A stretch of DNA of 64,000 nucleotides from a virus: positions 122,055-186,054 of the IMG/VR virus record IMGVR_UViG_3300024348_000001; one strand, 5' to 3'. Shown one piece after another: positions 21,705-57,411 of the stretch. The notes beneath the pieces are model-generated. The model made no database searches and was not told where the DNA came from. It was given only the letters and a program-made list of their open reading frames with translations. Positions within the stretch are counted from its first letter, which is position 1. Every line of letters begins with the position of its first letter. Both the position numbers and the translations under genes were made by a program.

Positions 21705-21734
21705 TGGATCGTCCTCCTTTAAGACAATGTGTAC

Positions 21735-32489: not shown

Positions 32490-34034
32490 TTATTGCCCCG
32501 CAAGGTCTAAACCTGCGGCTGTCAGTGCGCGAATAATGTCAGGGCTGTTTTTAAGTCGCAACATTAACGGTGACGTCGGGCTAATGTCTAATTTATCGGC
32601 TGCTATCAATTTACTTAATTCTTTTTTAAGTTGCTGCGGATCTTCTAATACAAATTGATTAAGAGTAGCATCTGTTTCAGGTATCACTTTGGCGGCAATC
32701 ATTGCTTTGTAAAGCCTATACCGGTCTGTTTGATCGTTTAGATTTGCTGGAGGTAAGAGGTTGGGTTCTGTTTTCTTTAAATCCGCAGGACGCAATTGCG
32801 ATTCAAGCTCTTTTTTAAGGTATTGCGCTCGTATCGTATCAAGTTGTTGCTCGCTAGCTCCCTGTGCCTGTGCCCGCGCATATTCAGGCGTTCGCTGTAC
32901 CTCGGCATCTGAATAAGCAGCATTTAGCGCTTCTTGTTGCTTAGGATGTAATTGCATAAAGTGGTCGGGGTTTTTATCTATTAATAATTGTGCATGCGCT
33001 TGTATTTTTGCAGGATCATTATTCAACAATACGCCTTGGGTAATTTTTCGTAGCGTCATTTGATTTTGAGCCGCAGGCGTACTCTGATTCGTAATTGTAG
33101 GATCTTCTCGCATAAAATAATCTTGCCATGTTCTTGTTACTTTTGGCGGCGCGTATCCCTTTACGCCATCAGGTAAAAATGCTGGATCCGTTTTAGTAAT
33201 CGGCGCAGTACCGTGCGTTTGCGCTTCTAATGTTTGTCGAATCTTTTCTTTTTGGATTGCATCGGGTGTCAAATTTCTAACAGCCGCTGTATTAGCTAAG
33301 TGCCCTATAGGAGAACTTGCCAAATCAAGCGAAGACCAAAATTGTTTGCGCAACTGATTTGGAACTTCACCAAGCGCTTGCAACATTGTCATTTTTCCGC
33401 CCGGATACCGTTTATTGAACTCTGGATCCATTTGCGGAAATACACCACGTAATGCTGGAATTGTTCTATTCTCGTAATCATGTTGCATTTGTTGTGTTGT
33501 ACGCGGGACCGCCGTTTCCGTTGCCGCATCAATTACCATTCCAGTCACCGGGTGCTTAAAAGGAAATGCCAGTACATTACCCGCAAATCCTACTCCTTTG
33601 CCTATAAGATTTTTACTTAAACGATCAGGCAATCGTATGCCGGGTAACATATCGGGTTCAATAGTTCCGCCCATTAATGCCCCTGCTACGCCGACACCGT
33701 GCGCAAGTCTACCGGCGTCGCGCTGCAATGATGATGCTGGAGATAAAGGCGCCTGAAAAGTTGACTCACTTTTTGGCGTACGCGTTTGATCTGCGAACGT
33801 GCGTATATGTTCAGCGTATGCCGGTGATCCTATTTGCGCTTCAGCTCCGTTGTATAACTTACGGTCTGCTTGAGACATTCCCACAGGTGTAGGCGTTGGT
33901 TTAGGTGCTTTTGGTGCAGGGGGAACGTACGGCAAGCTTGGTCCCGAAATATACGGCGGAATCTTATTAGACGTAGGATCAGCGGCCATCTTTACCCTAG
34001 CCGCTAACTTTCCAAGCTCTGATGCCGTAATCAT
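32490..34034 (-). CDS. Leader-tagged cargo protein 1
   Basis: Begins MITASELGKLAARVKMA; Pro-rich body of unknown family. Confidence 0.7.
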   Translation of the reverse strand: MITASELGKLAARVKMAADPTSNKIPPYISGPSLPYVPPAPKAPKPTPTPVGMSQADRKLYNGAEAQIGSPAYAEHIRTFADQTRTPKSESTFQAPLSPASSLQRDAGRLAHGVGVAGALMGGTIEPDMLPGIRLPDRLSKNLIGKGVGFAGNVLAFPFKHPVTGMVIDAATETAVPRTTQQMQHDYENRTIPALRGVFPQMDPEFNKRYPGGKMTMLQALGEVPNQLRKQFWSSLDLASSPIGHLANTAAVRNLTPDAIQKEKIRQTLEAQTHGTAPITKTDPAFLPDGVKGYAPPKVTRTWQDYFMREDPTITNQSTPAAQNQMTLRKITQGVLLNNDPAKIQAHAQLLIDKNPDHFMQLHPKQQEALNAAYSDAEVQRTPEYARAQAQGASEQQLDTIRAQYLKKELESQLRPADLKKTEPNLLPPANLNDQTDRYRLYKAMIAAKVIPETDATLNQFVLEDPQQLKKELSKLIAADKLDISPTSPLMLRLKNSPDIIRALTAAGLDLAGQ

Positions 34035-34056
34035 GGGTGATTCCTTAAATGCTTAT
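33971..34056 (-). repeat. RBS+leader DNA cassette, copy A
   Basis: 84/86 identical to 42753..42838. Confidence 0.95.
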
Positions 34057-34077
34057 ATTGTTTAAAACTTATTTTAT

Positions 34078-35517
34078 TTATGGAATGGCTTTTCCGTCCG
34101 CATCGTATTTGTTTTGACGCGGGGGTGAAGACGTTGTTGGTTTGTTAATATTGCCCGATGGAATGGCTTTTCCGTCCGCATCGTATTTCCTTTGAGACGG
34201 AGGTGAAGACGTTGTTCGTTTTCCAACAACGCCGGAATACGCCGGCGCCGACCTTTTAGTTTCTTCTCCCCACGCTCCGGGCGGAAGTAAATTATTTAAC
34301 ATGTTTAATGGCGCACTTACGGGTGTTCCCGCTGTTGCCAAAGCAGTTCCTAAAAGAGCAACTCGAGGATTTTGCATAATTCCGTTATAAGCATCTGCTA
34401 GAGCATCTTGCTGCTCAAATTTGCCGTGTTGCACATCTATCATTTTTTGTATTTGCGCGCGGTATTTGGGGTCATTCATGACAGCACTCATTTGAGTAGA
34501 TCCGCCAAGATGTCCACGTCGCCGCAAATCTTCAACAAACGCAGAATACGGCATTCCCATTATTTCGCCCTTTGGCCATTGTCCTGTCGCCTTGTGATAA
34601 GCATCCGCCACGTGAGCACTTTCACTTAATACAGCTGGTAATTCAGCTCCAAATATTGTGCGCGGAACTTCGTCTCGCCGCATTCGTGTTGGCACACTTT
34701 GCGTCGTATGCACGTGTTCGTGCAATCGAGCAGAGTCAGGACCAACCGAAGGATAATTTTTATTTAAAAGTTTAATGGCCGAATTATCTGGCGGATTTTG
34801 CCACGCTGAATCTGGCGGCATGTTCATAATTTGTGCGCTTTCTACGTTGGCGCCGATGGGACCCATTCTAACACCGGGATCCGTAAAATATTCATCGTAA
34901 TAAAACGGTCTTGATGTGCGTTGTTTAAACGCTATGTCTTTCATGTTTTTTAATGTTTTTTCAAATTCTTGTTTTTGCGGTGCTTTTGACGGATCACGGT
35001 ACAGTGCGTTAGCCGCAGAATACGTTTCGTGTCGTTCATCCCCGGGATGGAAACTAAATGCTTGTTGCGGTAAATATTCCGATAGCGGCCCTAACAACGA
35101 AGGCGGCACATTAAACCCAAACGGACGATGATTACTATAATGTTTTGCTAGCAATGTTTGATATGTGCGCATGTCCATCTTAGGACCATCATTTCCTGTC
35201 AAATCTTTGCCTGCGTACGGAAAATCTTTCTGGGGCACAAATTTAGCCGCACTACCGCGAAGCGTAGGATCTCCGTAAGCTTTATTTTCGCTAGGATTAA
35301 ATAAACTTCCAAATATTGGGGCATTTGTGTCAACAGGCTCTCCTATCGGTTTAATGCGTCCTGTCCTTGAACTGGTAGGAAATTTAGGTAAAAGCTCAGA
35401 TTCAAAATCACTAGAAAATTCCGGTATTGGCTTTGGTGTAGCTGCGCCAATAGACGCACTTGCTCCAGCCATCTTTACCCTAGCTGCTAACCGTCCAAGC
35501 TCGGATGCCGTAAGCAT
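34078..35517 (-). CDS. Leader-tagged cargo protein 2, possible zincin metallopeptidase
   Basis: Begins MLTASELGRLAARVKMA; LHEHVH (HExxH) followed by ELPAVLSE; C-terminal 26-aa duplication (TTSSPP...KYDADGKAIP). Confidence 0.65.
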   Translation of the reverse strand: MLTASELGRLAARVKMAGASASIGAATPKPIPEFSSDFESELLPKFPTSSRTGRIKPIGEPVDTNAPIFGSLFNPSENKAYGDPTLRGSAAKFVPQKDFPYAGKDLTGNDGPKMDMRTYQTLLAKHYSNHRPFGFNVPPSLLGPLSEYLPQQAFSFHPGDERHETYSAANALYRDPSKAPQKQEFEKTLKNMKDIAFKQRTSRPFYYDEYFTDPGVRMGPIGANVESAQIMNMPPDSAWQNPPDNSAIKLLNKNYPSVGPDSARLHEHVHTTQSVPTRMRRDEVPRTIFGAELPAVLSESAHVADAYHKATGQWPKGEIMGMPYSAFVEDLRRRGHLGGSTQMSAVMNDPKYRAQIQKMIDVQHGKFEQQDALADAYNGIMQNPRVALLGTALATAGTPVSAPLNMLNNLLPPGAWGEETKRSAPAYSGVVGKRTTSSPPSQRKYDADGKAIPSGNINKPTTSSPPRQNKYDADGKAIP

Positions 35518-35519
35518 AA

Positions 35520-38500
35520 TTACTCTACCTCCTCATCGAGTAACCCCAGATCGGGACTGTACTGGGTTGTCTGCTGCCTTAAAATTTTGTTCGTTTCCAG
35601 TAATTCTTTCAAACGCGCTGCTCGTAATTCTTCTTCTGTAGGTAACGCCGTCTGTGCTACAGAAATTGGTAATTCAGCAGGCTCTGGCGGTTCATAACGG
35701 CGTGCCGCAGCATTCTCAATGTCACGAATTGTTGTTACAGGCGTTGCCTCTCTGATCAAAGAAGCAATATCTGCGGCACGCTTATTACGAGCTCTGGCAA
35801 TACCGTCGGCAATACTATAAACGCTTTTCTTTTCTACCTTTTCAAGTTTGGTGTAGTACTTAAGATCTTCCACCAAATGATCTTTGGAAATGTCCGCAGC
35901 AATGGCAGGATTAGTGGTGTGCTCGGATTCCGTCTTAACACCCTTAGCCATTTCCTTCTTGGGAAAATCAGAGACGTTGTACTTGTCCCCAATGCCCCCC
36001 GGAAGAATGTCATCGGCGTGTTTGTACTGGTTTTTAAAATTGTCTAACAACGAATCAAGATTGTCTGCGCGCGTATTGTGTGTAAGCGTACCGGGCATGT
36101 TTCCAAATCTGCTCATATCTGACTTGTTGGAGTCATACAATTTCCGACCTAACTCAGAACGATATGCTTCAACTTCAGGCGTCCACGGGTTTCCTTTGGC
36201 TTCTACTCTCTGCTTAGTTCTATCTAGTCTTTGTTGCAAAAGCTCTGTTAATGGTGTCGTGACCAAAACACGATGCGGGTATTGCGCTAATTGTTGTTTA
36301 CGCAACGCAGCTAATTGCGTGCCTTCCACAATGGCACCGTCTTTTGCCGAATTAATCGTGTCGAGTGCCATACGTCGAGCTGCATCAAGATAACGCCTAC
36401 GTTCAATCGATCCGGGCGTCATGTGTTTGTTTTCAGGGTCATTCTTAAATATCTGTTTGAGTGCAGGATGATCATCAATACTCGTGACAGGTAAACCCAA
36501 AGCATCACTAAGTTGTTTTGCCACCGTGGATTTGCCTGCGCCACTATGTCCGCTAATTAAAATAACTTTGGATGGATCAGTTTCTGCGCATTTAACAAAA
36601 TACAGGTCGTCACTAGCGTGTTTATCCGTACCAGTACTATTACTTAAAAATCCTCTGTCTGTTCCAAGCATGCTTAAAAGTTTTTGTTTGTGCTCCGGAG
36701 CCATGTCTTTCATGGCTTCATCTTCATCCCTAACACGATATTCTGGGGCCATCGCAGAATACATGGGACGTGTGCCTAAAAGTTGTTCTGCTGCACGACT
36801 GGGGACTGTGCCTGTTAAACCCTTATCTGTAACTGCAAGCCTAAACCGATCAGCCATGTTTTGTTTAAACGTAGCATCGTCGTGCATCGCTGAATCGGAC
36901 GGATCGTACATATTGGACATGCGGTACGCCAAGTGATGTATGGCGTTTAACCTAGCAGCATCTGCGTTCGACAAATTAACTGATGTCATTTGCTGGGGTA
37001 CGGCCAAAGGCGCAAACGTTACAGGTTTGCCTGTTTTTGCTTGGATCCGCGTGGCTAGTTCATCAAAAACATTTTTACGTTGGGCTTCATCGCCGTTAAA
37101 CGCTAATTCGACATTACCTGTTTCTTCGTTGTTGACGCCTAAACCCGATATGCCTTTTTCGTCTAACAAAGCGTGGTACAGCTTTCGCAGACCTACACCC
37201 TGAACACTGTCGCCATTTGCTGTGTACACTTCCGCAAACTTAATGTGTTGCTGAGGCAGAATGTCGTCATTGGCAACTTTGTTGTTAGATTTGTCACCAT
37301 GCCGTTTCAACACAATCCCTGATGTCTGCAACGCGTCCCAAAGGTTTTTAATTTCCTCGACGTTTATAGGCTTCACGGCTTTGCGTGCAATTCTCTCAGT
37401 AGGCATTAACCGAGGATCTTCAGCAAAGTCTGTGGAAGGTAAATGATGTAAGAACCCGCTTTTGCCTTTATAAATCTTTTCAAAGGCACCGGGGTATCGT
37501 TCTTCTAAAACATAAGGTTCGTTGTTAGTACTCCCCAAGGACAAATCAGCATCTGTCCACGGAGCCATAAAACTCAAAGCTAACTCACGATTAGGTGTTC
37601 CAAAAACCGCAGCTTCGTTGTTAATCACACGGCTAGGGCGTGGTTCAATGTTTTTTAATCTTAAAGAAGACCCGTGGTACAACGCGTCACTAGATAACTT
37701 CTCAGTGTCGGTGCTAGGAGTCATAGGCGTGGCTACGGGCGTATTCAAATCAGGCTTTACGCCAGTCTTAGGTTGCTGGATCAAACCAACTCTACCAAAG
37801 TCAACAGTTCTTGCTAATCCGGGTACGAAGCTTGTGCCTGTAGCCGAACTCGTGGAACCTCTGTGTGTAGCATCCAACAAACTACTCTTAAGCCCCGAAC
37901 CATACATCCTCGTCATCCAGTCGGGGTCATGATGCAAATTGTACATCGCCCTAACCATCTCTGGCTGAAACGGCGCAGGCTTGTCGTGAACCGTAACGTC
38001 CTTAACACCAAAGTACGTCATGTCCTTGAGCATGCTTGGCTTTACCTGCGTGCCAATAGAATAATGCAACACAGGTTTCTCTAAATACTTATTCAAAGCT
38101 CTACTGGGTTCTAATGTCTGAAAACCTTCACGGGGTTTGTATCCATGCTCCAACGTTGAATAAGGAATCACGTCATCGGGTACGTGATCTCCGTATTCCT
38201 CTGTCATTCTCACGTGATCTATCAAACCACGACCAATAAGCTCAATGTTCCTTCTGTGGGAACGAAGCCCCATAGATCCCATAGATTCCTTAAAAGCCTT
38301 AACAAAATACTTGCGGCCTTCGCCTATGCCCTTATGTTGCGTAATGATGGAAGGATTGGGCATGCCTTCGCTAATAACATCTCCGGCTTCAACCTCATCT
38401 CCCGGTTTAACGTTAATCTCAAAACCATGACCTACGTACTGGGGTTTGTCATTAATAAATACGTACTTACCGCCAGCAGGAGCGTCTTCTATTTTCTGAA

Positions 38501-39629
38501 CTTTACCGTCTACAAGCGTGTGTGCAGCTCCACCTTTAAATGTCTTGGGTACTTGAATCAATTGGTTGATGTATTGGAAACCACCTACCGTCTTTTCTTG
38601 TCCCGCAACACCACCCGAGTGCTTTGATCCTAATTGTCCTTGGCTGATAGGTTCTGCAATAGCTTGGGCTGCTGTCATGCCCACCATCTCTCCACGCCCC
38701 GGAAGCGTACCTCTTTCCCTAACACCTACGTCACGAGCATAAACACCGCCATCAGGACTGCCACCCGTCATTGGACTGCGCACCAAGATACGATCGAACT
38801 TACGTGCCTTAAGGTCTTTCAGAATCTTAGGCGTTAATACCGTGTTGCGCTTGTAACCACCAAAGTCAAACGCTAACAATGCGCCTTCATTGTCCATGTC
38901 GTCGGTGTCTACGGGTAATCCTCTAATGCCTAAATCTTGACGTGGATCATCTTGATCAACAACGGCAAGCCTGTGTGCTACTTGATTAAGTTGTTTGCCG
39001 AAGAAGCCTGCATCCGCCGTAGCAAACTTAGTTGCAATAACACCCTTACGCGCGCCATATGTACCAGCCCAATACTCGGCAGGAGTTAACCCTTGAGAAT
39101 AGCTTTTAAGTACAGGCACAGGAATGATGTCACCCCTATGATCTTCGTACAACAAGTCGGCACCGCGTAATGATGCCAAATTCATCTTGTTGCCACGAGA
39201 GCCCGACATGATCTGCATAGCGATTGGGTTTTTTTCAGCCAAACTATCTGTGTACACGTCATCCATTAGTTTTTGCTGATATCCGCCAACAGTTTTAATC
39301 ACAAGTTCGTTACGTTGCTTGTCAGTCAGATAAGGGTTAGCCAGCAACTTTTTAACTTTGCCTCTGATTTCGGCCAGAGTTGCTTTAGCTCCGGCTGTTT
39401 GCGTCAATGCGCCTAAACCAAAGCTAAAGCCACCTGTTTCCGTTGCAACCTGTCGTCCGATGTTAGCCAGTTTCTGACTTACCTCTACGTATTTGTCAGG
39501 ATGCTTATCGGCTAATTCTCTTAGCAGTGTCTGCAACGAAGACTTGTTAAAAACCGTATTGCGCCCACGCATGCTTTCAGGCAATGCATCTTCAATCATC
39601 AATTTGCCGACGGTGCTGCGCGTGATCAC
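35520..39629 (-). CDS. RNA polymerase beta' C-terminal subunit fused to ART-like, acylphosphatase-like, P-loop kinase and DUF5661-like domains
   Basis: Bridge helix GARKGVIATKFATADAGFFGKQL and trigger loop AAQAIAEPISQGQLGSKHSGG. After the core come YHGSS, VQGVGLR, GHSGAGKS and ESEHT...DHLVEDLKYYTKL. Confidence 0.85.
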   Translation of the reverse strand: MITRSTVGKLMIEDALPESMRGRNTVFNKSSLQTLLRELADKHPDKYVEVSQKLANIGRQVATETGGFSFGLGALTQTAGAKATLAEIRGKVKKLLANPYLTDKQRNELVIKTVGGYQQKLMDDVYTDSLAEKNPIAMQIMSGSRGNKMNLASLRGADLLYEDHRGDIIPVPVLKSYSQGLTPAEYWAGTYGARKGVIATKFATADAGFFGKQLNQVAHRLAVVDQDDPRQDLGIRGLPVDTDDMDNEGALLAFDFGGYKRNTVLTPKILKDLKARKFDRILVRSPMTGGSPDGGVYARDVGVRERGTLPGRGEMVGMTAAQAIAEPISQGQLGSKHSGGVAGQEKTVGGFQYINQLIQVPKTFKGGAAHTLVDGKVQKIEDAPAGGKYVFINDKPQYVGHGFEINVKPGDEVEAGDVISEGMPNPSIITQHKGIGEGRKYFVKAFKESMGSMGLRSHRRNIELIGRGLIDHVRMTEEYGDHVPDDVIPYSTLEHGYKPREGFQTLEPSRALNKYLEKPVLHYSIGTQVKPSMLKDMTYFGVKDVTVHDKPAPFQPEMVRAMYNLHHDPDWMTRMYGSGLKSSLLDATHRGSTSSATGTSFVPGLARTVDFGRVGLIQQPKTGVKPDLNTPVATPMTPSTDTEKLSSDALYHGSSLRLKNIEPRPSRVINNEAAVFGTPNRELALSFMAPWTDADLSLGSTNNEPYVLEERYPGAFEKIYKGKSGFLHHLPSTDFAEDPRLMPTERIARKAVKPINVEEIKNLWDALQTSGIVLKRHGDKSNNKVANDDILPQQHIKFAEVYTANGDSVQGVGLRKLYHALLDEKGISGLGVNNEETGNVELAFNGDEAQRKNVFDELATRIQAKTGKPVTFAPLAVPQQMTSVNLSNADAARLNAIHHLAYRMSNMYDPSDSAMHDDATFKQNMADRFRLAVTDKGLTGTVPSRAAEQLLGTRPMYSAMAPEYRVRDEDEAMKDMAPEHKQKLLSMLGTDRGFLSNSTGTDKHASDDLYFVKCAETDPSKVILISGHSGAGKSTVAKQLSDALGLPVTSIDDHPALKQIFKNDPENKHMTPGSIERRRYLDAARRMALDTINSAKDGAIVEGTQLAALRKQQLAQYPHRVLVTTPLTELLQQRLDRTKQRVEAKGNPWTPEVEAYRSELGRKLYDSNKSDMSRFGNMPGTLTHNTRADNLDSLLDNFKNQYKHADDILPGGIGDKYNVSDFPKKEMAKGVKTESEHTTNPAIAADISKDHLVEDLKYYTKLEKVEKKSVYSIADGIARARNKRAADIASLIREATPVTTIRDIENAAARRYEPPEPAELPISVAQTALPTEEELRAARLKELLETNKILRQQTTQYSPDLGLLDEEVE

Positions 39630-39642
39630 AGGGAACTCCCGG

Positions 39643-40077: not shown

Positions 40078-40144
40078 GGCTGACTCCTAAAAAAAACAGC
40101 CGACGTGTTTTACCACATCGGCTGCCCCGAGAACATCCGTGTTG

Positions 40145-40543: not shown

Positions 40544-40555
40544 GGTAAATCCTCA

Positions 40556-40822: not shown

Positions 40823-40832
40823 AAATAACTCC

Positions 40833-41709: not shown

Positions 41710-42816
41710 TTAAGGCCACAAAGGTGCCGCTGGCGGTATTGCAAAACCAGCAGAGTCAAATTTTTTGTTTTGCATTATTCGGGAATACAGTCTTTCGCCC
41801 GCATCGTCTTCTTCGGAACCAATTGCGGTAGGGTTGTGATAAATGGGTCGCCTGCGCCACGCAGCCGTTTCTTGCGCGGTATCAAACAAATCTTCTTTTT
41901 TCGGTAGTGGCGCTCGCATTTGCGGGCCACTACTGCCAAAATCTTTTGGCGGAATGTGTCCGCGCAAATACGGATTATGTCCAAGTACGCCGGCCTCGCT
42001 TCCGTCAAGTGCTCTATCCAAATTAGCTAAATGTTGCGGCATTAAAAACAAAGGCGTTTTTGGGTCACCGTGAATTAAACCATCTCTAGCAAATTGATGC
42101 GGATCAAAACGACGATCGCCGTTTTCAACTTTCAACGCATTTGCAGGTAAAGATTTTGGTTGTTTTGCATTTGGATTATTTTGTTGAAATCGTAAATTGT
42201 TGCTTGAATGATCTAACATGGCAAGTCCGACATTACCGGGCAAGAAAAAACTTGGAAATCCTTGTTTGTTTTCACCAAATTCATCGTAATCTTGCACTAA
42301 ATCTGGATGATTGCGGGGACGAATTTTACCTTGCGCAAGCGCATCTTGTATATCTTGTTTTGTTGGCTGTCCTTTTTGTCGTTGCATTTTATCGCTTGCG
42401 TCTTGCAACATACGAATTGGGTCTCTTTCACCCGGAAATGCCTCAAACTTCTGGCGAAGACCGCCTGCATTGCGCAATACCGGAACACCTTTTTCTAAGG
42501 TTGAACCGTACAGCATATCTTTTAACGTTTTTTGCGGTGTTGCTGAAAATGCTGGTTGTTTTACAGATTGCAATTGCGTCAATGCTGCCGCAGGCATTTT
42601 TGGCAAAACCACGTTAGGTTTTTGCGGGGCATAATCCCAATTTTCTTTACCACCACCCGGACCTGACTTTGGATTAGGAGCATACGGCGCCACAGAAGGT
42701 TTAGGTGCCGACGACCCCGGCACCGAAGGCATTACGGTATCAGATTTACGAAACGTAGGATCAGCAGCCATCTTTACCCTAGCCGCTAACTTTCCAAGCT
42801 CTGATGCTGTAATCAT
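41710..42816 (-). CDS. Leader-tagged cargo protein 3
   Basis: Begins MITASELGKLAARVKMAADPT, the same as 32490..34034, then diverges. Confidence 0.7.
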   Translation of the reverse strand: MITASELGKLAARVKMAADPTFRKSDTVMPSVPGSSAPKPSVAPYAPNPKSGPGGGKENWDYAPQKPNVVLPKMPAAALTQLQSVKQPAFSATPQKTLKDMLYGSTLEKGVPVLRNAGGLRQKFEAFPGERDPIRMLQDASDKMQRQKGQPTKQDIQDALAQGKIRPRNHPDLVQDYDEFGENKQGFPSFFLPGNVGLAMLDHSSNNLRFQQNNPNAKQPKSLPANALKVENGDRRFDPHQFARDGLIHGDPKTPLFLMPQHLANLDRALDGSEAGVLGHNPYLRGHIPPKDFGSSGPQMRAPLPKKEDLFDTAQETAAWRRRPIYHNPTAIGSEEDDAGERLYSRIMQNKKFDSAGFAIPPAAPLWP

Positions 42817-42840
42817 GGGTGATTCCTTAAATGCTTATTG
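42753..42840 (-). repeat. RBS+leader DNA cassette, copy B
   Basis: Matches copy A (84/86) and copy C (64/65). Confidence 0.95.
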
Positions 42841-43845
42841 CAAGTTAGGGTTTAGTCGCTGCTTGGTGTAAATTTTACGCACCGCAGGGTCAGTTTTTGG
42901 GTTTGCCATTTCTGTGTGAAGCAGTTTTTCACCCTCACGTGTTCGTCCTGTAGTTGGATTTACTGTAAGTGGAAAATATGGATTATCTACAGAAGCCGTG
43001 TTAAACGCGTTCATAACACTCCATGCGTCACTTTTATTTTGCCGCTCAAACGAAGGCCTGTTTCCCCAAAATTTTCTATCGTTAAACTCATCGGTACTTG
43101 CACGCGCAGGTATTGGTGGTTGTTGCGGATATCGCCATGCGTTATATGCATTGTTAACATTAGTTACAATTTTATTCGGCGTTTTGAAACCCGCTAGTAT
43201 ACTAATTCCTGCTTGCGGTCCGGGTGGCAACGCTTCAAAACGATCTATACGGTTGTCTAAACGAATTCTTGGTCTAAACGTTTGAAGGCTAGTGGGCGTT
43301 TGTGCTGCGAAATCATCAGGTTCTAGGCCTTCAACGCGACCGCCTTGCGATTTAGACACACCTGAATACATCTCAGGTTTATACGGAATATTTGAAGGCG
43401 TATAACCGCTTTGTACTGCGTCACGCGGTGTGAACTCAGGCATTTGATTTTTTTGCAAAAAGTCAGAATAATGTGATTCATTAAATGGGTGTAAGTTCAA
43501 ATCTAATTTACGATTAGCTGGATCATTTTCATATTGATGCTTTGCCGTTCTAAATGCATTGGCGTCGTGCACGTTTCTACGTTGAGAAATTGCTTGGGCA
43601 AGTTGATGCTCTGGCGCAGAATTTAATAAATCATTGTAAAAACCTTTACCTCTATATGCAGACGAATAATCTTTTGCTGCTGCCACCGCAGGTTGCGCTA
43701 CTGCTTGCATTGCGCCAAACGGCGAAATCATTGTTTTCATTGCTTTACCAGCTGTAACCGCAGCACCTGCAATAGGTGGTAATTTTTGTTCTTCAGCTAT
43801 CTTCACCCTAGCTGCTAACTTTCCAAGCTCTGATGCTGTAATCAT
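42835..43845 (-). CDS. Leader-tagged cargo protein 4
   Basis: Begins MITASELGKLAARVKIA. Confidence 0.7.
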   Translation of the reverse strand: MITASELGKLAARVKIAEEQKLPPIAGAAVTAGKAMKTMISPFGAMQAVAQPAVAAAKDYSSAYRGKGFYNDLLNSAPEHQLAQAISQRRNVHDANAFRTAKHQYENDPANRKLDLNLHPFNESHYSDFLQKNQMPEFTPRDAVQSGYTPSNIPYKPEMYSGVSKSQGGRVEGLEPDDFAAQTPTSLQTFRPRIRLDNRIDRFEALPPGPQAGISILAGFKTPNKIVTNVNNAYNAWRYPQQPPIPARASTDEFNDRKFWGNRPSFERQNKSDAWSVMNAFNTASVDNPYFPLTVNPTTGRTREGEKLLHTEMANPKTDPAVRKIYTKQRLNPNLQ

Positions 43846-43869
43846 GGGTGATTCCTTAAATGCTTATTG
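43805..43869 (-). repeat. RBS+leader DNA cassette, copy C
   Basis: 64/65 identical to 42776..42840. Confidence 0.95.
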
Positions 43870-46800: not shown

Positions 46801-48360
46801 TTCGTAATCAATTTCTTCTCTAGGCACATATGTGATTTTGCCTGATTTCATAGCAGGCACGCGGTTATCGTCGCTTTTCAACGCTCCGGGAAACGCTACG
46901 GCGACATCTGCAAGTTCTTGAGGAGAACGCCATACTGTTTCACCTGTCTTCAAATCCCTGAACTGAGCATAGATCTTGCCGTCGGGTCCTTTACGGGCAC
47001 CTCGAGCAATGTGAGTATCTACCCCTGCTCTCATGCTCTCTGGCGTGCGTACAGGATCCATGAATCCCATGTGAGAAGGTTGCACACTGCGAGCTTCATC
47101 GGGAATGGCATCCATGCTTGGGATACCACCTTCTCCCAAACGTGTGATCTTAGTGTGCTTATCAAGGATTTCGGCAGGATTGATTTCTTCAAGGTTCTGT
47201 CCAAGCCCTGAACCAAGAAGTGCCTGTTCAAGTTGAGGTGTCATTACTCCTGTAGGCATGCTTTTTAAACTGCCTTGGAATGATGCTTTGTAAAATGCGG
47301 CTCTGCGCATGCCCGAATGATCTCGTTCAACACGCTCACGCAACAAATCTTCCGGTCCGTGAAAAGTCTGATAGGCCAAATGGTCACGGTCATCCACTTC
47401 TTGTTCACCGCGCGACACCGCTAAGAGTTTTTTAGTCGTAGCAAGAATGGCGTCTTTGTTCATTCTGTCAAAAGCTGTGCCCAATGTTCTTTTAGTAACA
47501 AAGGGATCTAGCTCCATTCTTTCAAACACGTCCGTAAGCTTCTGCCGCGTCGTTGTTTCATCGCCTTCTAGGTCTTTGGCTTTGAGTAATCTGGCTTTAA
47601 GTTTTTGCACAACGGCAGAATCATTCTCTTTGTAATTAGCGGCGTAAATTTGATCTCCCCACGCTTCTTTGATTTCGGCGTCTGTGGCTCCCATAGATTT
47701 AAGCAAAGGCATCAAAGGCAATTCACCCTGTCCCAATTTAAGTTTGTACACATTTGTTTCTGGGTTGAGCATGTACCTGTGAGAAATGCCTTTGCCCGGT
47801 AATACGTTGGCGTGCGCTTCTAATTCTCCGTTAGATTTAATACGCGTGTAGACGCCGGGTTTGAGCCTTTGCTGTGCAGTTAAGGTGTACTCGCTGCCGT
47901 TGTGGACCATGGTGCCGTATTTAGTCACATAAGGCACATTAGCCAACACCTGATCACGGGCATCAATGACTTGGCCCGTGATGTTGTCCATAAGCTCCCA
48001 CGTGCCTTTAAGACGACGGCCCATGGTCTTACCACCCAACACCGCATCTTTGTGCTGTTTGTTGGAATAGAGTTCGGGATCAATGTATCTGACACCATTC
48101 AAACGCAATGTGTGCTTTTCATTAGAAATGGGTTGAATAGCGGATGCCGCAGCTAATACAGAATCGTAAATAGCTTTGCGTGTGGAACTAACGTCCGAAA
48201 ATGATCTGAGTTGATCCATAGACGGTGATGTAAATTGCGGCTTAGGTGGTGCCGGTAAAATCGACATGTCACCGGCCATAGGAGGCACCGGTGACATGGC
48301 ATCTAACTTGGCGGGTAAAGCACTCGCTGTTGGGCGAGCTGGAGGCAATATAGAATCCAT
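43864..48360 (-). CDS. RNA polymerase beta subunit fused to N-terminal (catalytic) part of beta'
   Basis: beta motifs: DPVRTPES, GDKMSGRYGDKG, FYMKLHH, GGESGSKRISMLDVNAL. beta' motifs: LLSSTVDNVGRAVI, NRAPVLH, and catalytic NADFDGD. Confidence 0.92.
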   Translation of the reverse strand: MDSILPPARPTASALPAKLDAMSPVPPMAGDMSILPAPPKPQFTSPSMDQLRSFSDVSSTRKAIYDSVLAAASAIQPISNEKHTLRLNGVRYIDPELYSNKQHKDAVLGGKTMGRRLKGTWELMDNITGQVIDARDQVLANVPYVTKYGTMVHNGSEYTLTAQQRLKPGVYTRIKSNGELEAHANVLPGKGISHRYMLNPETNVYKLKLGQGELPLMPLLKSMGATDAEIKEAWGDQIYAANYKENDSAVVQKLKARLLKAKDLEGDETTTRQKLTDVFERMELDPFVTKRTLGTAFDRMNKDAILATTKKLLAVSRGEQEVDDRDHLAYQTFHGPEDLLRERVERDHSGMRRAAFYKASFQGSLKSMPTGVMTPQLEQALLGSGLGQNLEEINPAEILDKHTKITRLGEGGIPSMDAIPDEARSVQPSHMGFMDPVRTPESMRAGVDTHIARGARKGPDGKIYAQFRDLKTGETVWRSPQELADVAVAFPGALKSDDNRVPAMKSGKITYVPREEIDYELPAFEDAFSALGNLIPIKSAVKAQRMAMASRMLTQALPLKDGEAPFVRGALPGTKGTKDFEHEFGVHMGAVRAAQDGQITDISDGIVKLRYADGSKDEIELFQNHPFNRKTMLHQSTALKPGDMFKQGQTIVRSNFTDKDGAMALGLNARTAYMPWKGYNFEDANVISEGMAKRMSSEHMYQHELEVTDQHKMGKRNYISLFPQKYDKQLLDTMDDDGIIKVGQTVTYDQPLILGAQEKESPQNKIHKQGARAFGDVSVLWKHHDPGVVTDIVQSKNGPVVLVKSIVPTQVGDKMSGRYGDKGVIAAIVPDHQMPTDSQGRPFEVLLNPLGIVTRTNPAQKVELMLGKIAELTGKSIAVPDFEDIEDMTEWAEQQLKKYNLKGTENIMDVTRNQYVNNVATGNRFYMKLHHTAESKGQGRGSGAYSSEDAPAKGGESGSKRISMLDVNALLSHGATETIRDAGLIRGQKNEEYWTQFMQGHTPIEPKVPLIYEKFVNSLKAAGINVVSNGQETNVMAMTNSDVKQLTADRVVRSGETVRFDKNMEPIAGGLFDPKLTGGHNGRQWAKIELPEPTLNPVMEEPARRLLGLTQQQLRDTIGGEHILGRYGTGPQAIAKALAELNVKREIDVARAQVNGSNKAARDNAIRRLGYLKGAEKYGLHPKDWILDAVPVLPPIFRPVTVMGSSGIPLVADPNYLYKELLDATANFKSMKDMVGLNDTGSERLAIYDSFKAITGLGDPIHPKLQEKNVSGILKSIFGNSPKFGTVQRKLLSSTVDNVGRAVITPNPDYDMDTVGIPEGKAFEVYNKFLIRRLKRLGMPMGEALRHVKDKTALAKDALLKEMETRPVFINRAPVLHRFGIMAFKPRLVSGDVMQISPLIVKGFNADFDGDAMQFHVPTSEAAVREAYDRMMPSKNLFHPADFKSVVHGPVNEYIGGLYHASSQTSARRPRVFASRQDAIAAYKRGDIQADDPVEIIQ

Positions 48361-48383
48361 TGTTTACACCGTATTTGAAATGA

Positions 48384-50359: not shown

Positions 50360-50373
50360 GGCTCACTCCTAGA

Positions 50374-50811: not shown

Positions 50812-50850
50812 GATAGTTACCTCGTTCGTGAAAAACTAGATTGTTTGGAA

Positions 50851-52029
50851 TTATAACAACTCAATGGCTGGAGTCTTGGGTGGTTTGTCTGTAGGAACAG
50901 GCGCAGGCATTGTTTTAATCCCGTTGCCTTTAGGACCTTTGCCTCGAATAGCCGGCATTAACTCAAAAGGCGGCGGTACTGGGCCTTTAGGTGCGTTACC
51001 GAACCTTGGATCCATTTTGTCCCCGGCCGGATTAGCCGGCATATTAGGTCTAATAGGAAGCCTTGGATTCATTTTGTCACCGGCAGGATTAACCGGCATA
51101 TTAGGTCTAATAGGAAGCCTTGGATCCATCTGACCACCGCCGTTAAATCCCGGCATCACCACAGCCCCACCCATGCCTCGTTGCGGAAGAAATTGATTTC
51201 TACCTCCATTGAGTCCCGGCATTACTACGGGACCACCCATACCTCGCTGTGGTTGTTTGAAAAAAGGATTATTGCCGCCTAAGCTAAATAACCACGACGG
51301 CAAATCAGACCAACCCTCAGCTTGTTTAGTGTGATGCATTTGTGCGGATAATCTTCCCAAGTCGGCCGCAGTGTGCATATTTAATTCGCCAGATTCTTTT
51401 TCAATTTTTGGCTTTTTAAAATACTTTTCGGTTATCACGTCAAGAGGATGTGTCCCGGCAGGAAATGCTTCGTCCCGTTCCATATAATCAGGTGTTTTTA
51501 AACGTAACAATTCAGCCAACCCTGCCCGTGCTTTGCGTGGGTGTTCCATAGAATAGTAATTTGGCATTGAGCTTTCATTTGTATCATCAATTTGCTTTGC
51601 GGCCATGAGCCTTTTTATAGCTTCGTCTGCGGAATACATACTTGAAGGATCAGCATACTGTTCGCCATAAAACTTAACATCGGCTCCGCGTGCTTTTGCT
51701 GCATCTGCCAATGTTTTAGTCATGTCGATAATGCGCTTTCGGCTCCGATGCAAAGGCCTGTCGTCGTAAGCAGGTCCACCATCCAACCAACGATCATATT
51801 CGTATCCAGTGTCACTTCCGCCATACGCCGACTTCTCAACATTTCGTTTTGTTTTATTTGTTTCTTTAAGCCAAGCATGCATGTCATTGCGTATGTCGTG
51901 AAACTCTTCAGGAATGTCCTTAGTCATTTTTTTGTATTCAGCTGCGTCACTTTTAGCTTTGCGCTTTGGCTCAGTGTCCTTAGCTTGCTTTTGTGCGGTA
52001 AGCATTCCCAATTCAGCAGCAGTAAACAT
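50851..52029 (-). CDS. Leader-tagged cargo protein 5 with a second, internal leader
   Basis: MFTAAELGMLTAQKQA at the start; MHTAADLGRLSAQMHHTKQA internally; C-terminal 19-aa repeats (MxPRLPIRPNMPxNPAGDK). Confidence 0.7.
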   Translation of the reverse strand: MFTAAELGMLTAQKQAKDTEPKRKAKSDAAEYKKMTKDIPEEFHDIRNDMHAWLKETNKTKRNVEKSAYGGSDTGYEYDRWLDGGPAYDDRPLHRSRKRIIDMTKTLADAAKARGADVKFYGEQYADPSSMYSADEAIKRLMAAKQIDDTNESSMPNYYSMEHPRKARAGLAELLRLKTPDYMERDEAFPAGTHPLDVITEKYFKKPKIEKESGELNMHTAADLGRLSAQMHHTKQAEGWSDLPSWLFSLGGNNPFFKQPQRGMGGPVVMPGLNGGRNQFLPQRGMGGAVVMPGFNGGGQMDPRLPIRPNMPVNPAGDKMNPRLPIRPNMPANPAGDKMDPRFGNAPKGPVPPPFELMPAIRGKGPKGNGIKTMPAPVPTDKPPKTPAIELL

Positions 52030-52047
52030 GTTTAACCCCTTAAGCAC

Positions 52048-52494
52048 TTATACAGTTGGCCAAGCTGCAATGCCCCAACACTTAAATACTTCGTTGAGAC
52101 GTCCTGTTGTCTTCCACATTCTGTCCCATTTTATCAAAGTTGCGTGCGCATGTCCTATCTGAACATCGTGCATAAAGACTTTATTGTGTTTGACACCTTT
52201 AACTACGACATAGTGAGACACAGCGTCAGGTTCCCAGCACACTAAGCAAATGACAGGTTTATTGGTGTTACAGAAATGCCTAAGATCGGACACAGTCATC
52301 TCACCGGCCAAGACATTGAGCCCAGAAAGCCTAAGAGCGGCCTCCAACTGCCGTGGATCCGCTCCATCTTGGGGCGTGGCAAACTTTTTTTTAGCTGTCG
52401 GAACATCGAAGTACTTGAGGACACAGGCTACCGCCGCTTCTCCGCAATCATGATCTCCCTTTTGTCGTTCGTCAGGTAATGAGATCATGATCAT
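52048..52494 (-). CDS. Peptidase C39-like cysteine protease
   Basis: QKGDHDCGEAAVACVL (Cys), SHYVVV (His), HD (Asp). Confidence 0.75.
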   Translation of the reverse strand: MIMISLPDERQKGDHDCGEAAVACVLKYFDVPTAKKKFATPQDGADPRQLEAALRLSGLNVLAGEMTVSDLRHFCNTNKPVICLVCWEPDAVSHYVVVKGVKHNKVFMHDVQIGHAHATLIKWDRMWKTTGRLNEVFKCWGIAAWPTV

Positions 52495-52518
52495 TCTCCT
52501 AAAAGTGCATATAAATCA

Positions 52519-53259: not shown

Positions 53260-53654
53260 ATGACGCTGTTCTTTCCCGGAACGACAACGGTTACGGGACG
53301 ACGGCGCACTAAATCCCGACGGGCCGAAGCGTCATCAGGAGATCCTTGTTCGCGCGCCTCTTGCACTAAGTTTTCCATTTTATCAATAAACCGCTGCAAA
53401 TCTTCAATGTTGTCCATAGCCATATAAGAATTGTCGCCGGGATTGTCTCTGAGATGCTTGAGGCCGTTCTTAACCATTTCGCTCATGGCGCTCATTCTGG
53501 CTAAGGCTTCTCTGACAGAAAGGATTTGGTAACTGTTGTCGCGAGAATCTTCTATGCGAATAAGACCACGTTCCGCCCACACCCTGAGATGCCTGTATTG
53601 CGCGAGACCGTGATCAAGATTAGTAAAAAGCATGATTACCTCAATAGGACACAA
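53256..53654 (-). CDS. Hypothetical protein
   Basis: Co-oriented ORF; likely start ATG 53633 behind a GAGG RBS. Confidence 0.55.
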   Translation of the reverse strand: MCPIEVIMLFTNLDHGLAQYRHLRVWAERGLIRIEDSRDNSYQILSVREALARMSAMSEMVKNGLKHLRDNPGDNSYMAMDNIEDLQRFIDKMENLVQEAREQGSPDDASARRDLVRRRPVTVVVPGKNSVM

Positions 53655-54195
53655 CGTTACTCGGGGTGATTGTAGTCGGAGTCATTATTTCAATTCTTGG
53701 GTAAATGTCCATCCCCATGTATTTCTCTGTCTGCAACGTACCAGCGTCTTTCGCCGCACGCCAACGTTTTAACGCTTGTTTCAAACCTTTTTCACCAAAA
53801 GTAGTGCGTGATTTGCCTGCGCCTACTACATCAAAAAACGAACTGTTTACGATATTTGGCGCTAATGGAGCTTCGTGCCGATAATCTCCAGTGCCGGGTG
53901 CCCCAAACATTTCATGATCTGCAAGTGTCGCATACAAGAATGAATTGTTGGGATCTGAAGGGACATTGCGCGCGGCCAGACGCTTGTGCAATTCTTTTTC
54001 AAACCAACGTCTTTTGTCTACGTAAGCTTTTACCTTGTCAGGATCGCTTGCCCACCTGCCTTTTGTGCGGTGTGCAGTCAATTCGTCATATGACAATGGT
54101 TTAAGTTGATCACGTTTGTCACGGGCGTAATGGACCAACGTGTAATCTTCTGCATACTTAGCCGCAAGTTGACCGAGTTCGTGTGCAGTAATCAT
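53641..54195 (-). CDS. Leader-tagged cargo protein 6
   Basis: MITAHELGQLAAKYA; AAGGAG RBS. Confidence 0.7.
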   Translation of the reverse strand: MITAHELGQLAAKYAEDYTLVHYARDKRDQLKPLSYDELTAHRTKGRWASDPDKVKAYVDKRRWFEKELHKRLAARNVPSDPNNSFLYATLADHEMFGAPGTGDYRHEAPLAPNIVNSSFFDVVGAGKSRTTFGEKGLKQALKRWRAAKDAGTLQTEKYMGMDIYPRIEIMTPTTITPSNVVSY

Positions 54196-54210
54196 CACTA
54201 ACTCCTTGTG

Positions 54211-54528
54211 TCAACAATTCCATTTACGCAAAGCCTTGTTAATACGGCTGTCAGGATCATTGGCCGTTTCACTACTTGTCAGCTTACTCTTCATGCCACC
54301 CATTCGTGCACAGAAGCTTGCCTTACGTCCTGCGCGCTCTCCTGTGGGTTTGTCTTCCGTCACAGGAGGTTTAATGTCTTGACCCTGTGCTTTGAGGCTA
54401 GCACGTCCTTTGGCGTTTAAGCCACCTGACTCGCTCTTGCCTTCAGCGCGCGTCCATGCACCTTCAGCAGCTTTGATCAAGTTAGCTGTGTGCTGCGCTG
54501 CAAGTACGCCAAGATCGTGTGCAGTCAT
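54211..54528 (-). CDS. Leader-tagged cargo protein 7, DUF6321-like basic protein
   Basis: MTAHDLGVLAAQHTANLIKAA, then AWTRAEGKSESGGLNAKGRAS...RKASFCARM...SRINKALRKWNC. Confidence 0.7.
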   Translation of the reverse strand: MTAHDLGVLAAQHTANLIKAAEGAWTRAEGKSESGGLNAKGRASLKAQGQDIKPPVTEDKPTGERAGRKASFCARMGGMKSKLTSSETANDPDSRINKALRKWNC

Positions 54529-54549
54529 TGTGAGTCACCCCTTAAGTGC

Positions 54550-55716
54550 TTATACGTTTGTTCCGGGTGCCTGTCTTTGTTTGTTTTGCACCACGGACGA
54601 CAAGATCTGAAGAATGGCTTTTCTTTTAAGTTCAGGATTAGACATGATGGTGGGAAGCAATTGTTGAAATTCGGGGTTTACATTTTTTGGTACGGGCTTA
54701 TCGCCGGGTTCTCTGGCAGGATTATAATGTTGCAACAGTGCTTCGGCGGTAGGGATATCATTTAATGCTTTACCGGGATTGTTTTCAATCCAGTGTCGCC
54801 GCAATTCACTTAAATGTGCACCAAATTCAGTTGGCCTTCCGAAATAATCCACACCATATCCACCGGGTTTGCGTAACTCCTCAGGAAATTTACTTTCATA
54901 TCCTTTGAAGATGTCTGGCAACCCAAAGCTCGGAGTCATCGAAAAATCTTGACCTATACGTGACAAACTGTTACTAGCATTATGGTGCATTGCGTGTGTT
55001 AGCTCGTGTCCAAATGTGCTGCGAATCCAAGGGTCTGACGCCGGCCGATTGATCTTGTTCGGGTTCATCATTATTGCATTGGGATTTCGGCTCCAGCCGT
55101 TGCCGGACTGATTAATCGCTTGATATGCACCTGCGTCCCGCGGATTATTTTTATCAGTAAAACCGCCGTGCGTTCCAGTTTCAATAAATGGCGTTTGACG
55201 GTTTTCCCACGGTCCAACAAAACTGCCACCGCGTACGTCAACGGGGTTGTGTAAGTCTTCAGGTTTCCACGTATGCAATCCTTCTCTCTTAGCGTCGTCT
55301 TGCCACCGTTGAGAATGGTCAATTGCTCCCTGATATCCTCCGGGATACTTGTCATACAAAGGTTTAAAGTAAGCGTAAGGTATGATTTGCGTTTTAAAAT
55401 CACCCGTTGGCGGTCGGAAATAATCATACTGCGGTCTTGCGGCTGCTTGTGCAGCTTCTTGAGCTTTAGCCGATCCACTTGCAAATGGGGTTATGGGTTG
55501 TTTTGGATTACCCTTGGGCAAACCCTTAGTTGCACCAAACGGTTGTTCTGATGATTTAGCGTAAGGATTTGGTTGAGCTTGGGGCTTTTGGTCTTTTGTT
55601 AAATTCATCTCTGGTGGTGTAGGTGTAAACCAAGACCGCACAGCTTCCGTTAAATCCGAAGCGCTTTTAATTCTATGCCTAGCACACAGCATTCCTAATT
55701 CACTTGCAGTAATCAT
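54550..55716 (-). CDS. Leader-tagged cargo protein 8, zincin-like metallopeptidase
   Basis: MITASELGMLCARHRIKSA; FGHELTHAMH, then RPTEFGAHLSE; AAGGAG RBS before ATG 55716. Confidence 0.7.
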   Translation of the reverse strand: MITASELGMLCARHRIKSASDLTEAVRSWFTPTPPEMNLTKDQKPQAQPNPYAKSSEQPFGATKGLPKGNPKQPITPFASGSAKAQEAAQAAARPQYDYFRPPTGDFKTQIIPYAYFKPLYDKYPGGYQGAIDHSQRWQDDAKREGLHTWKPEDLHNPVDVRGGSFVGPWENRQTPFIETGTHGGFTDKNNPRDAGAYQAINQSGNGWSRNPNAIMMNPNKINRPASDPWIRSTFGHELTHAMHHNASNSLSRIGQDFSMTPSFGLPDIFKGYESKFPEELRKPGGYGVDYFGRPTEFGAHLSELRRHWIENNPGKALNDIPTAEALLQHYNPAREPGDKPVPKNVNPEFQQLLPTIMSNPELKRKAILQILSSVVQNKQRQAPGTNV

Positions 55717-55726
55717 CGTTGACTCC

Positions 55727-56824
55727 TTACTGCCCAAAGATTTTAGGAATTACTGCGCCGATAACACCTAATGCCACGTTACCCAATCCAAACTGTGGTG
55801 CCGTATAAGGTGTTCCGACAACTTTGTTCAAAGCATATCCAGCCAAAAATCCTGTTGCGTAATTACCCGCAGCGTTGACTGCTAATTTACCTAATTGATC
55901 TCCTGTGACATATCCCGGAATGCGCCTGTCAGAAGGCATGTGAGACGCAGAATACATAGTCGCCAAAGTACCTGCCATCATTTGAGGACTAGCCCCCGTC
56001 TGCCACAGCGTTCTTCCAAGCGCGTCTACATTGACATCAAAAGGCGTAGGCGTGCGGGGAGAAAACGAAGCAGGTCCAAAAGCATCTTCTTCAAATTCGG
56101 CTATCTTTTCGTGTATTAGATCAAATGACAATTTACCAAACATGCTACCGAACATGCTTTTTTTAGGTTTATCCTCGGGGTAAGACACGGGGAATTCTGT
56201 TTCAGGTTTGAACTTAGAATAATCTATTGGGTCAGCGTGGGGCCAATTGCTAAATAAAGACTTACCTTCCATGAGACTAGGATAAGCCCTTAATAAACCT
56301 GCGGCTCCTGTACCTGTTAAGCCACCCAACATAGCTAGACTTGATGGCAATTCATCGCCATAACCTTCAGGCGCAACAGTTTTGATTAATTTGCCCGCAC
56401 CATAACCTAATCCTGCACCGACTAACCCCGACGTAAGCATCGCAGCTAAGGGATTAGGGTGATTAGGGATGGTGCCAAAATATTTACCGGGAATAAAGTT
56501 AAGGTTCTCAGCTATGGTCTTGAGTGTCTGACTATATGCCACTTTAACCCAAGGCTCGCTGTCTAATTCTTCAAGTGTCAATGGCGTTTCTTTGATGTAA
56601 CCGAAGTCACTTGCAAATTTAAGGGCTCTAATTACATCAGCTTCTGGCGTTTTAGGACTAGCGTGTACTGCAAGCTTCTCAATGACAGGTGAGTAGTAAT
56701 AACCTATGTGCCCTGTGGTTGCGACATCTAACGCCGCAACCTTAAGAAGATCCGCGGCGTCTACACACGGCTCCAACCAATCATCAATGGCGGGAATCAC
56801 ATCTGCCCACGTTTGAGGAATCAT
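55727..56824 (-). CDS. Putative internal/ejection protein with glycine zippers
   Basis: LKVA, EKLA, LKFA, VKVA, EKIA; GLVGAGLGYGAG and LGGLTGTGAAG. Confidence 0.55.
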   Translation of the reverse strand: MIPQTWADVIPAIDDWLEPCVDAADLLKVAALDVATTGHIGYYYSPVIEKLAVHASPKTPEADVIRALKFASDFGYIKETPLTLEELDSEPWVKVAYSQTLKTIAENLNFIPGKYFGTIPNHPNPLAAMLTSGLVGAGLGYGAGKLIKTVAPEGYGDELPSSLAMLGGLTGTGAAGLLRAYPSLMEGKSLFSNWPHADPIDYSKFKPETEFPVSYPEDKPKKSMFGSMFGKLSFDLIHEKIAEFEEDAFGPASFSPRTPTPFDVNVDALGRTLWQTGASPQMMAGTLATMYSASHMPSDRRIPGYVTGDQLGKLAVNAAGNYATGFLAGYALNKVVGTPYTAPQFGLGNVALGVIGAVIPKIFGQ

Positions 56825-56868
56825 GGTTTAATCCTTTGAGTACCGTTCCTTTAAACGCTTATGGACAG

Positions 56869-57411
56869 TTAGCGCATCGATCGCATTGCCGCAAGCATAA
56901 GAGCGGAATTATTGTCGGATTGAGTCCTGTCGGCGTCTCTTTGAAAAACAGGATCACTCATGATGTCACGCATACGTGCTCCGGGTGGCAATCGACGCAT
57001 CAATTCTTCTGTGGACTCGTTCTCGGCTTGTCTGCCCCACGCGCCGCCAACACCACCAACAACGCCACCTAACCCCGCCCCAATAAGTCCGCCCGGAAGA
57101 CCGCCTAACGCCAATCCACCGATACCACCTGCGCCGGCACCTAGCAATCCCGTCAGTAATCCTTGTTTGGTGGGACTAGCCATCGTTTCGGCAGGATCGG
57201 TTGCATAGCTCTGGAAAATTCGAGGTATCCAGCGATCTTTACCTTTTTCAATTCGTTCTTGTTCCTCGGGTTCAAATTCTCGTCTTTCATTTATGGGTAG
57301 GTATTGTTGCGCGCCAAATTGCGGCGTTCCATATGGTTTTTCTTTAGCTGTTTTTTCTTGCATGTAAGCGTTGTATGCGACAAAACGTCCAAGATCTGAA
57401 GCTGTGTACAT
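56869..57411 (-). CDS. Leader-tagged cargo protein 9 with glycine zipper
   Basis: MYTASDLGRFVAYNAYMQEKTA; GLLGAGAGGIGGLALGGLPGGLIGAGLGGVVGG; GGAG RBS. Confidence 0.7.
   Translation of the reverse strand: MYTASDLGRFVAYNAYMQEKTAKEKPYGTPQFGAQQYLPINERREFEPEEQERIEKGKDRWIPRIFQSYATDPAETMASPTKQGLLTGLLGAGAGGIGGLALGGLPGGLIGAGLGGVVGGVGGAWGRQAENESTEELMRRLPPGARMRDIMSDPVFQRDADRTQSDNNSALMLAAMRSMR

Follow-up and report, generated by a model that had tools for sequence, protein, structure and literature searches.

A common N-terminal leader ending in K-x-A on nine unrelated phage genes: a candidate head-loading propeptide

We analysed the last 64 kb (positions 122,055 to 186,054; hereafter the window) of a single 186,054-bp virus record, IMG/VR IMGVR_UViG_3300024348_000001, whose whole length we label G000 and which comes from an uncultured phage at about 86% genome completeness (CheckV estimate). 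Nine genes in the window, unrelated in their bodies, open with the same short peptide, a 12-residue core followed by K-x-A. On balance we judge it probable that this leader is a head-loading propeptide, which would share the logic of the phage T4 capsid-targeting sequence (CTS), with an address and a protease code that are both new. The kind of system is known already; what is new is its occurrence in a further phage clade, with its own leader and its own cut motif.

The leader and the genes that carry it

A six-frame regular-expression scan returns ten copies of M-x-T-A-x-[DE]-L-G-x-[LF]-x-A, all on the minus strand, and a hidden Markov model (HMM) of the leader searched against six frames of the whole 186-kb genome recovers the same ten (per-copy domain E 1e-8 to 2e-6), the next-best match standing at E 0.004 and the remainder being noise. 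Nine copies are true N-termini, with an ATG 7–11 nt after an AAGGAG-like ribosome-binding site; the tenth (51378) is internal to g52029 and has no such site. Similarity among the tagged proteins by blastp is confined to the first 45–62 residues, made up of the leader and a Pro/Ala-rich linker, and K-x-A follows every copy, 0–8 residues past A12. An earlier note on this DNA had described nine open reading frames (ORFs) with a common leader and unrelated bodies, a tenth and internal copy, and a K-x-A ending; scan, HMM and blastp bear this description out, the ending in 10/10 copies. The tagged genes are as follows.

32490..34034, minus strand: g34034 (514 aa); leader in the first 17 codons, 33984-34034, ending K-M-A
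34078..35517, minus strand: g35517 (479 aa); leader 35467-35517, ending K-M-A
41710..42816, minus strand: g42816 (368 aa); leader 42766-42816, ending K-M-A
42835..43845, minus strand: g43845 (336 aa); leader 43795-43845, ending K-I-A
50851..52029, minus strand: g52029 (392 aa); N-terminal leader 51982-52029, ending K-Q-A, and internal leader 51319-51378, ending K-Q-A
53641..54195, minus strand: g54195 (184 aa); leader 54151-54195, ending K-Y-A
54211..54528, minus strand: g54528 (105 aa); leader 54466-54528, ending K-A-A; body DUF6321 (PF19846, E 5e-20)
54550..55716, minus strand: g55716 (388 aa); leader 55660-55716, ending K-S-A
56869..57411, minus strand: g57411 (180 aa); leader 57346-57411, ending K-T-A

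Only two tagged bodies have a family match of any sort, that of g57411 being weak and glycine-zipper-like (PF20721, 26 bits, below cut-off); g34034 has no Pfam or PHROG match. The internal copy in g52029 is kept in two close relatives (L058 and L059) and missing in a third (L060).

Across an alignment of 16 copies, drawn from this phage and from its close relatives, M1, T3, A4, L7, G8 and A12 are invariant. Within the window T3, A4, G8 and A12 are each written with three codons and L7 with four, CTN/TTR changes included; invariant residues encoded in three or four ways indicate selection on the peptide rather than on the DNA. A palindromic box, ATAAG-YRY-TTA, lies about 21–24 nt upstream of five tagged genes (window 34055, 42837, 43866, 52050 and 54552) and also precedes tail genes, several structural genes and others genome-wide.

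Nearly all genes at 1–58.6 kb of the window are on the minus strand. The tagged genes interleave with two genes for a virion-type RNA polymerase (RNAP), g48360 and g39629, and stand upstream of g32407, g24572, g22991, g21704, g21209 and g20634, among them genes for a predicted protease, a scaffold-like protein, a cement-like protein and the major capsid protein (MCP). With RNAP genes interleaved and head genes downstream, the tagged genes sit inside a virion RNA polymerase/head module, whose principal members are these.

43864..48360, minus strand: virion-type RNA polymerase g48360 (1498 aa); a fusion of beta with the N-terminal portion of beta'
35520..39629, minus strand: g39629 (1369 aa); RNA polymerase beta' C-part (aa 1-632) and a lineage-specific tail
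23067..24572, minus strand: prohead protease candidate g24572 (501 aa); predicted gp21/assemblin fold at about aa 52-250 and a helical C-terminal half
21735..22991, minus strand: scaffold-like protein g22991 (418 aa); predicted disordered and helical; four family-invariant K-x-A sites
19696..20634, minus strand: MCP g20634 (312 aa); conserved K-x-A at aa 29-31

The larger polymerase protein, g48360, carries Rpb2 domains 2, 3 and 6 and Rpb1 domain 2 (Rpb2_6 E 1e-51, Rpb1_2 E 7e-24), and g39629 carries Rpb1 domains 4 and 5, then acylphosphatase-like, P-loop kinase-like and DUF5661 segments. The g39629 tail, residues 632–1369 (window 35520-37730, minus strand), looks like polyvalent cargo fused to the polymerase. 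The nearest named relatives of both proteins are two RNAP subunits of Salmonella phage Arash, gp206 and gp216, together with Vibrio phage D69 genes, g48360 being the orthologue of gp206; purified Arash virions contain both subunits among their most abundant proteins (PMC10585845). Further into the head genes, g32407 is related to the Arash structural protein gp218 and g24572 is the orthologue of the Arash virion protein gp222. For g21209 the ESM Atlas gave no more than a lead, to cement or decoration proteins, and for g28806 it was uninformative.

K-x-A and the predicted head protease

K-x-A (K.A in motif counts) is concentrated in head proteins. The head cluster of this genome holds 122 against 84 expected (z 4.6), compared with z 1.4 for the rest of the genes and z 1.1 for the tail; the extended forms [EV]K.A (41 against 9 expected, z 10.5) and K.A.D (28 against 5, z 8.5) are weak or absent in other genes. 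The head-module proteins of Arash, which is cultured and distant, give 52 K.A against 25.6 (z 6.0) and 24 [EV]K.A against 3.4 (z 11.3), and its other proteins 15 against 16 expected and 0 against 2.3, respectively. Individual sites are conserved: the g22991 family (36 sequences, about 40–97% identity) has invariant K24-x-A26, K247-x-A249-x-D251, K263-x-A265 and K285-x-A287; the MCP site at residues 29–31 is kept in six phages (G000, its relatives G002, G004 and G005, Arash and D69); g27727 has four conserved sites, and g41618 and g50811 one each.

The bodies of the tagged proteins avoid the same motif. Their 2,785 residues in nine cargo bodies contain 4 K.A against 18.4 expected, a count as low being reached in 0/5000 shuffles, and one of the four comes from the internal leader; g34034 (0 seen, 3.5 expected) and g35517 (0 seen, 2.8 expected) are examples. 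Six metagenome proteins that carry the leader show 1 against 22.1 expected, and the mirror pattern A.K is not depleted. Marking head proteins, fixed at the leader end and purged from the bodies, K-x-A behaves like a protease site that the cargo meets; it is, judged by these counts, a selected signal. Along g39629, K-x-A at 784, 797, 1003, 1013, 1203 and 1283 falls between the Pfam domains at 806–860, 1015–1150 and 1227–1268, a spacing that fits a polyprotein which would be cut into modules.

The Pfam prohead-protease models PF04586 and PF03420 (S77 and S78) have no match in the genome, and the candidate g24572 was found by fold only. No protein of the module is better conserved (41% identity with Arash gp222 across the N-terminal domain; more than 1,100 homologues). 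Its AlphaFold model (predicted local distance difference test, pLDDT, 78.7; 39-sequence alignment) was searched against 48,161 representative chains. The best match is T4 gp21 (5jbl_A; Z 9.2, root-mean-square deviation 3.1, 130 residues, model residues 52–235), followed by the proteases of varicella-zoster virus (Z 8.6) and human cytomegalovirus (Z 6.2); the next chain, unrelated, has Z 5.4. Foldseek gives gp21 a probability of 0.98; its top rows for the whole model are efflux pumps, which we regard as spurious. Across 39 homologues neither H106 nor S167 varies, and the two are the putative catalytic pair. Two K-x-A, at 39–41 and 56–58, stand just before the fold, whose domain runs from about residue 60; that it begins directly past the invariant K56-x-A58 is as expected for self-processing. 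Herpesvirus proteases of the gp21/assemblin fold cut after Ala, which makes Ala at P1 plausible. On its predicted structure g24572 is likely to be the head-maturation protease. We had also considered g22991 for this role and rejected it, given its predicted disordered and helical structure (pLDDT 52.6), and re-read it as scaffold-like.

Turnover of the cargo and competing readings of the leader

Three relatives that are 94–100% complete (G002, G004 and G005; RNAP 44–60% identical to that of this phage) have orthologues of all the core genes around the tagged ones, with MCP 86–87% identical in G002 and G004, and have no orthologue of the nine tagged genes, of the C39 peptidase gene g52494 described below, or of the g39629 tail beyond residue 632. 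Closer relatives (G001, L058, L059 and L060) have core genes 95–100% identical, and the cargo varies: g54195 is missing in L058, g43845 and g42816 in L060, and the g55716 slot holds three paralogues in G001 and other bodies behind the same leader in L059 and L060. Searching 5.8 billion proteins with the leader region yielded six only (P0001–P0006), among which three different bodies follow the same leader and linker, P0003–P0006 being mosaics. A degenerate DNA pattern of the leader found one IMG/VR contig only, G001; megablast of the region and tblastn of g34034 against phage records gave no match. The tagged genes are thus lineage-specific accessory inserts in a conserved module, with bodies turning over rapidly behind a constant leader. 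The earlier note had expected a leader search of related genomes to show variable cargo sets with the tag at N-termini, which holds for the close relatives. The leader HMM finds no copy in Arash, D69, L004–L018, G002, G004 or G005, and the 12-residue core is, on these searches, lineage-specific.

Accessory genes next to the RNAP genes of other relatives start with other short peptides that end in K-x-A (L004 13031, L006 13167, and L013 14393 and 15101). As a separate observation, a break near residue 958 divides the RNAP beta gene in L004 (12730-15058), L005 (12787-13602) and L006 (12862-13616), where the upstream ORF extends by about 100 aa and the downstream ORF opens with a block like an intein C terminus. 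The arrangement resembles a split intein whose halves enclose another gene; that gene, of 637 aa in L004, starts with a short peptide ending in K-x-A.

Under the head-loading reading, the 12-residue core would dock newly made accessory proteins to some part of the prohead under assembly, be it scaffold, protease or shell, and the docked proteins would be enclosed together with the virion RNA polymerase. As the sequence statistics suggest, g24572 would then cut after the K-x-A past the core and free the mature protein inside the head; by analogy, the cargo would leave with the DNA at infection. The earlier note had proposed loading and clipping of this kind. Placement in the module, the K-x-A statistics, the gp21-fold protease and the variation of the cargo support that proposal in part; the C39 gene was unforeseen.

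Several observations weigh against a head-loading propeptide. The leader is not measurably amphipathic in a hydrophobic-moment test, and a C39 peptidase encoded in the same cluster is a second enzyme that might recognise the core. The protease and the K-x-A code also occur in relatives that lack the core entirely, so general head maturation in the clade does not require it. In the cargo bodies K.G is depleted too, and K.S less so, so the true site may be K-x-small. The RNAP core proteins show no depletion of K-x-A, so proteins that meet the protease do not always lose their sites.

The C39 gene supports a different account, which we hold possible though unlikely, in which the core is the recognition leader of this stand-alone peptidase, as double-glycine leaders are for bacteriocin-processing peptidases.

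52048..52494, minus strand: stand-alone Peptidase_C39 g52494 (148 aa); PF03412 E 4e-13; without a leader of its own

Cleavage near A12 would then activate or release the proteins, in the cell or in the head, and K-x-A would be a separate, clade-wide head-protease site. In a fuller version, to which we give the same low credence, the phage would have adopted a bacteriocin-type leader/C39 pair, the peptidase recruiting swappable proteins into the prohead or activating them after delivery, with the K-x-A cut independent of it. The catalytic residues of g52494 are intact (Q11, C17, H94 and D110 are kept, C17 and H94 being invariant in the family), and its family profile matches the double-glycine-motif proteases PCAT1, ComA PEP and LahT150. 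In 5/5 loci of the lineage the gene is part of the tagged cluster and stands immediately upstream of g52029 with its two leaders; it is absent from 4/4 relatives G002–G005. The leader is likewise missing in whole-genome scans of G002, G004 and G005 and in the 25 kb of G003 that were scanned. A hydrophobic residue at 2, the acid at 6, L7 and L/F at 10 reproduce the -12/-8/-7/-4 double-glycine pattern if the cut follows residue 13. However, the leader has no G-G, G-A or G-S, its sole Gly is G8 and its core ends [ATCVS]-A12; the canonical register would place R, Q, K or Y at P1, and no double-glycine leader model was matched (NCBIfam, seven leader fragments, E up to 10). G000, G001 and L058–L060 are moreover one lineage (C39 93–96% identical), and the joint presence of leader and peptidase thus counts as a single evolutionary event. 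The leader is lacking at three further phage loci with the C39 family (L061, L062 and L064), and in megaphage LR756511 the C39 homologue itself bears a T4-type tag shared by many neighbouring ORFs, which suggests that C39 is cargo and not the leader peptidase.

Under a further reading the leader would dock to a partner other than the capsid. The virion RNAP (co-packaging by piggy-back), the portal and some structure within the infected cell are candidates, and K-x-A would then belong to the linker or serve processing at a later stage. Both RNAP genes have tagged genes on either side, another tagged gene outside the window follows a large gene, possibly for the portal, and a leader-like copy occurs in a 119-aa ORF adjoining a tubulin-like gene. 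Avoidance of K-x-A in the cargo bodies nevertheless argues for contact with a K-x-A protease, and in known systems such a head protease is active inside the prohead; a piggy-back on RNAP would in any case still be head loading. We consider docking of this kind distinctly improbable. Finally, the shared N terminus could be a by-product of cassette recombination that copied promoter box, ribosome-binding site and first codons, leaving a functionless peptide. About 23 identical upstream bases and near-identical leader DNA are shared by 34034, 42816 and 43845, and the mosaics P0003–P0006 show exchange at leader and linker. Yet in the six diverged copies the invariant residues persist despite synonymous and multi-base codon changes, and the upstream DNA differs, every copy keeps K-x-A at a variable distance, and the cargo bodies avoid it; a functionless peptide is accordingly very hard to credit.

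If the head-loading reading is right, load-then-clip logic also operates in an unrelated clade of 180–235-kb phages with their own virion RNA polymerase, and does so with an address and a protease code (K-x-A; herpesvirus proteases likewise have Ala at P1) unlike those of T4. The code would predict the mature ends of the head proteins of the clade, including those of the cultured phage Arash. Tagged genes would mark fast-evolving, probably injected proteins, candidates for host takeover or counter-defence, and foreign proteins could be packaged by means of the leader.

Known systems and neighbouring observations

In T4, the CTS of internal proteins IPI–III and Alt is removed by the prohead protease gp21 (reviews PMC9026906 and PMC9958956). 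The present leader resembles it as a short N-terminal peptide common to unrelated proteins, followed by a motif that marks the head proteins of the phage, with a predicted gp21-fold protease in the head module and cargo genes that are hypervariable among relatives. It differs in that the leader consensus has no sequence in common with the T4 CTS, the site is K-x-A (small P1, as for herpesvirus proteases) and not [LI]-x-E, and 0–8 variable residues separate core and site. The host clade, too, is unlike T4, being Arash-like with a multisubunit virion RNA polymerase, and packaging and cleavage are here proposed.

In the giant phages phiKZ and SPN3US, a gp21-like prohead protease cuts virion RNAP and ejection proteins at [SAG]-x-E or A-x-E (PMC5694885, PMC7411985, PMC10052503). 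Likeness extends to a virion-packaged multisubunit RNAP encoded with head genes, to a short protease motif on many head proteins and to propeptides removed during maturation, as we propose here. The motif differs, and so do the RNAP fusions, which in the present phage join beta to the N-part of beta' and the beta' C-part to an enzyme-like tail. We know of no single leader sequence shared by the phiKZ and SPN3US propeptides.

Double-glycine/C39 systems (PCAT1, ComA, LahT) offer another parallel: a C39 protein with its catalytic residues beside many genes with one N-terminal leader, and a similar spacing of hydrophobic and acidic positions in that leader. Unlike the PCAT/AMS transporters, the system here has no Gly-Gly, its peptidase is not fused to a transporter, and the substrates are 100–500-aa proteins rather than peptides. 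The g39629 tail recalls the polyvalent proteins of phages and conjugative elements (Iyer et al. 2017, PMC5512222) in stringing together enzyme-like domains, with putative protease sites between them, on a protein delivered with the virion. It departs from them in that most of the cargo here is in separate genes, each with its own leader, and that the putative sites are those of the head protease.

Members of the C39 family (447 representative clusters) are mostly about 145 aa and stand-alone, and g52494 likewise is neither fused to nor paired with an ABC exporter. The family has no PHROG and one match only among 50,697 phage records; the A5 profile and phmmer of C39 against PDB sequences found nothing, a search of genome contigs with P0247 gave no match, and the C39 alignment is too diverse for locus scans. 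On two small siphovirus-like contigs (L061 2087-2521 and L062 4133-4579) a C39 homologue lies between large terminase and portal, and the portal N terminus there includes a 20-residue stretch ending V-A-G-G. Many unrelated ORFs of a 595-kb megaphage (L064, LR756511.1 409948-450427) start with M-x-x-F-x-[EQ]-W-[ILV], near the T4 CTS; tagged ORFs lie for example at 1832, 3571, 5940, 9175, 12036, 19950, 28788 and 31075, with a C39 homologue among them.

At least one more tagged gene lies outside the window.

G000 21719-23911, minus strand: eleventh tagged gene (~730 aa); two leader cores in tandem before K-x-A

Its G001 orthologue starts with ATG, and a 636-aa gene, perhaps for the portal, stands immediately upstream of the tagged gene. 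Also outside the window, a tubulin/FtsZ-family gene (PF00091, E 2.5e-12) occupies G000 18225-19466 on the minus strand (L063 6225-7466); the leader-like copy in the 119-aa ORF next to it is internal. Within the window, g41618 (40833-41618, minus strand) contains five tandem Pro/Gly/Met-rich repeats after its conserved K-x-A, which F-V-P-x-G-D-P follows, and the number of repeats varies among relatives.

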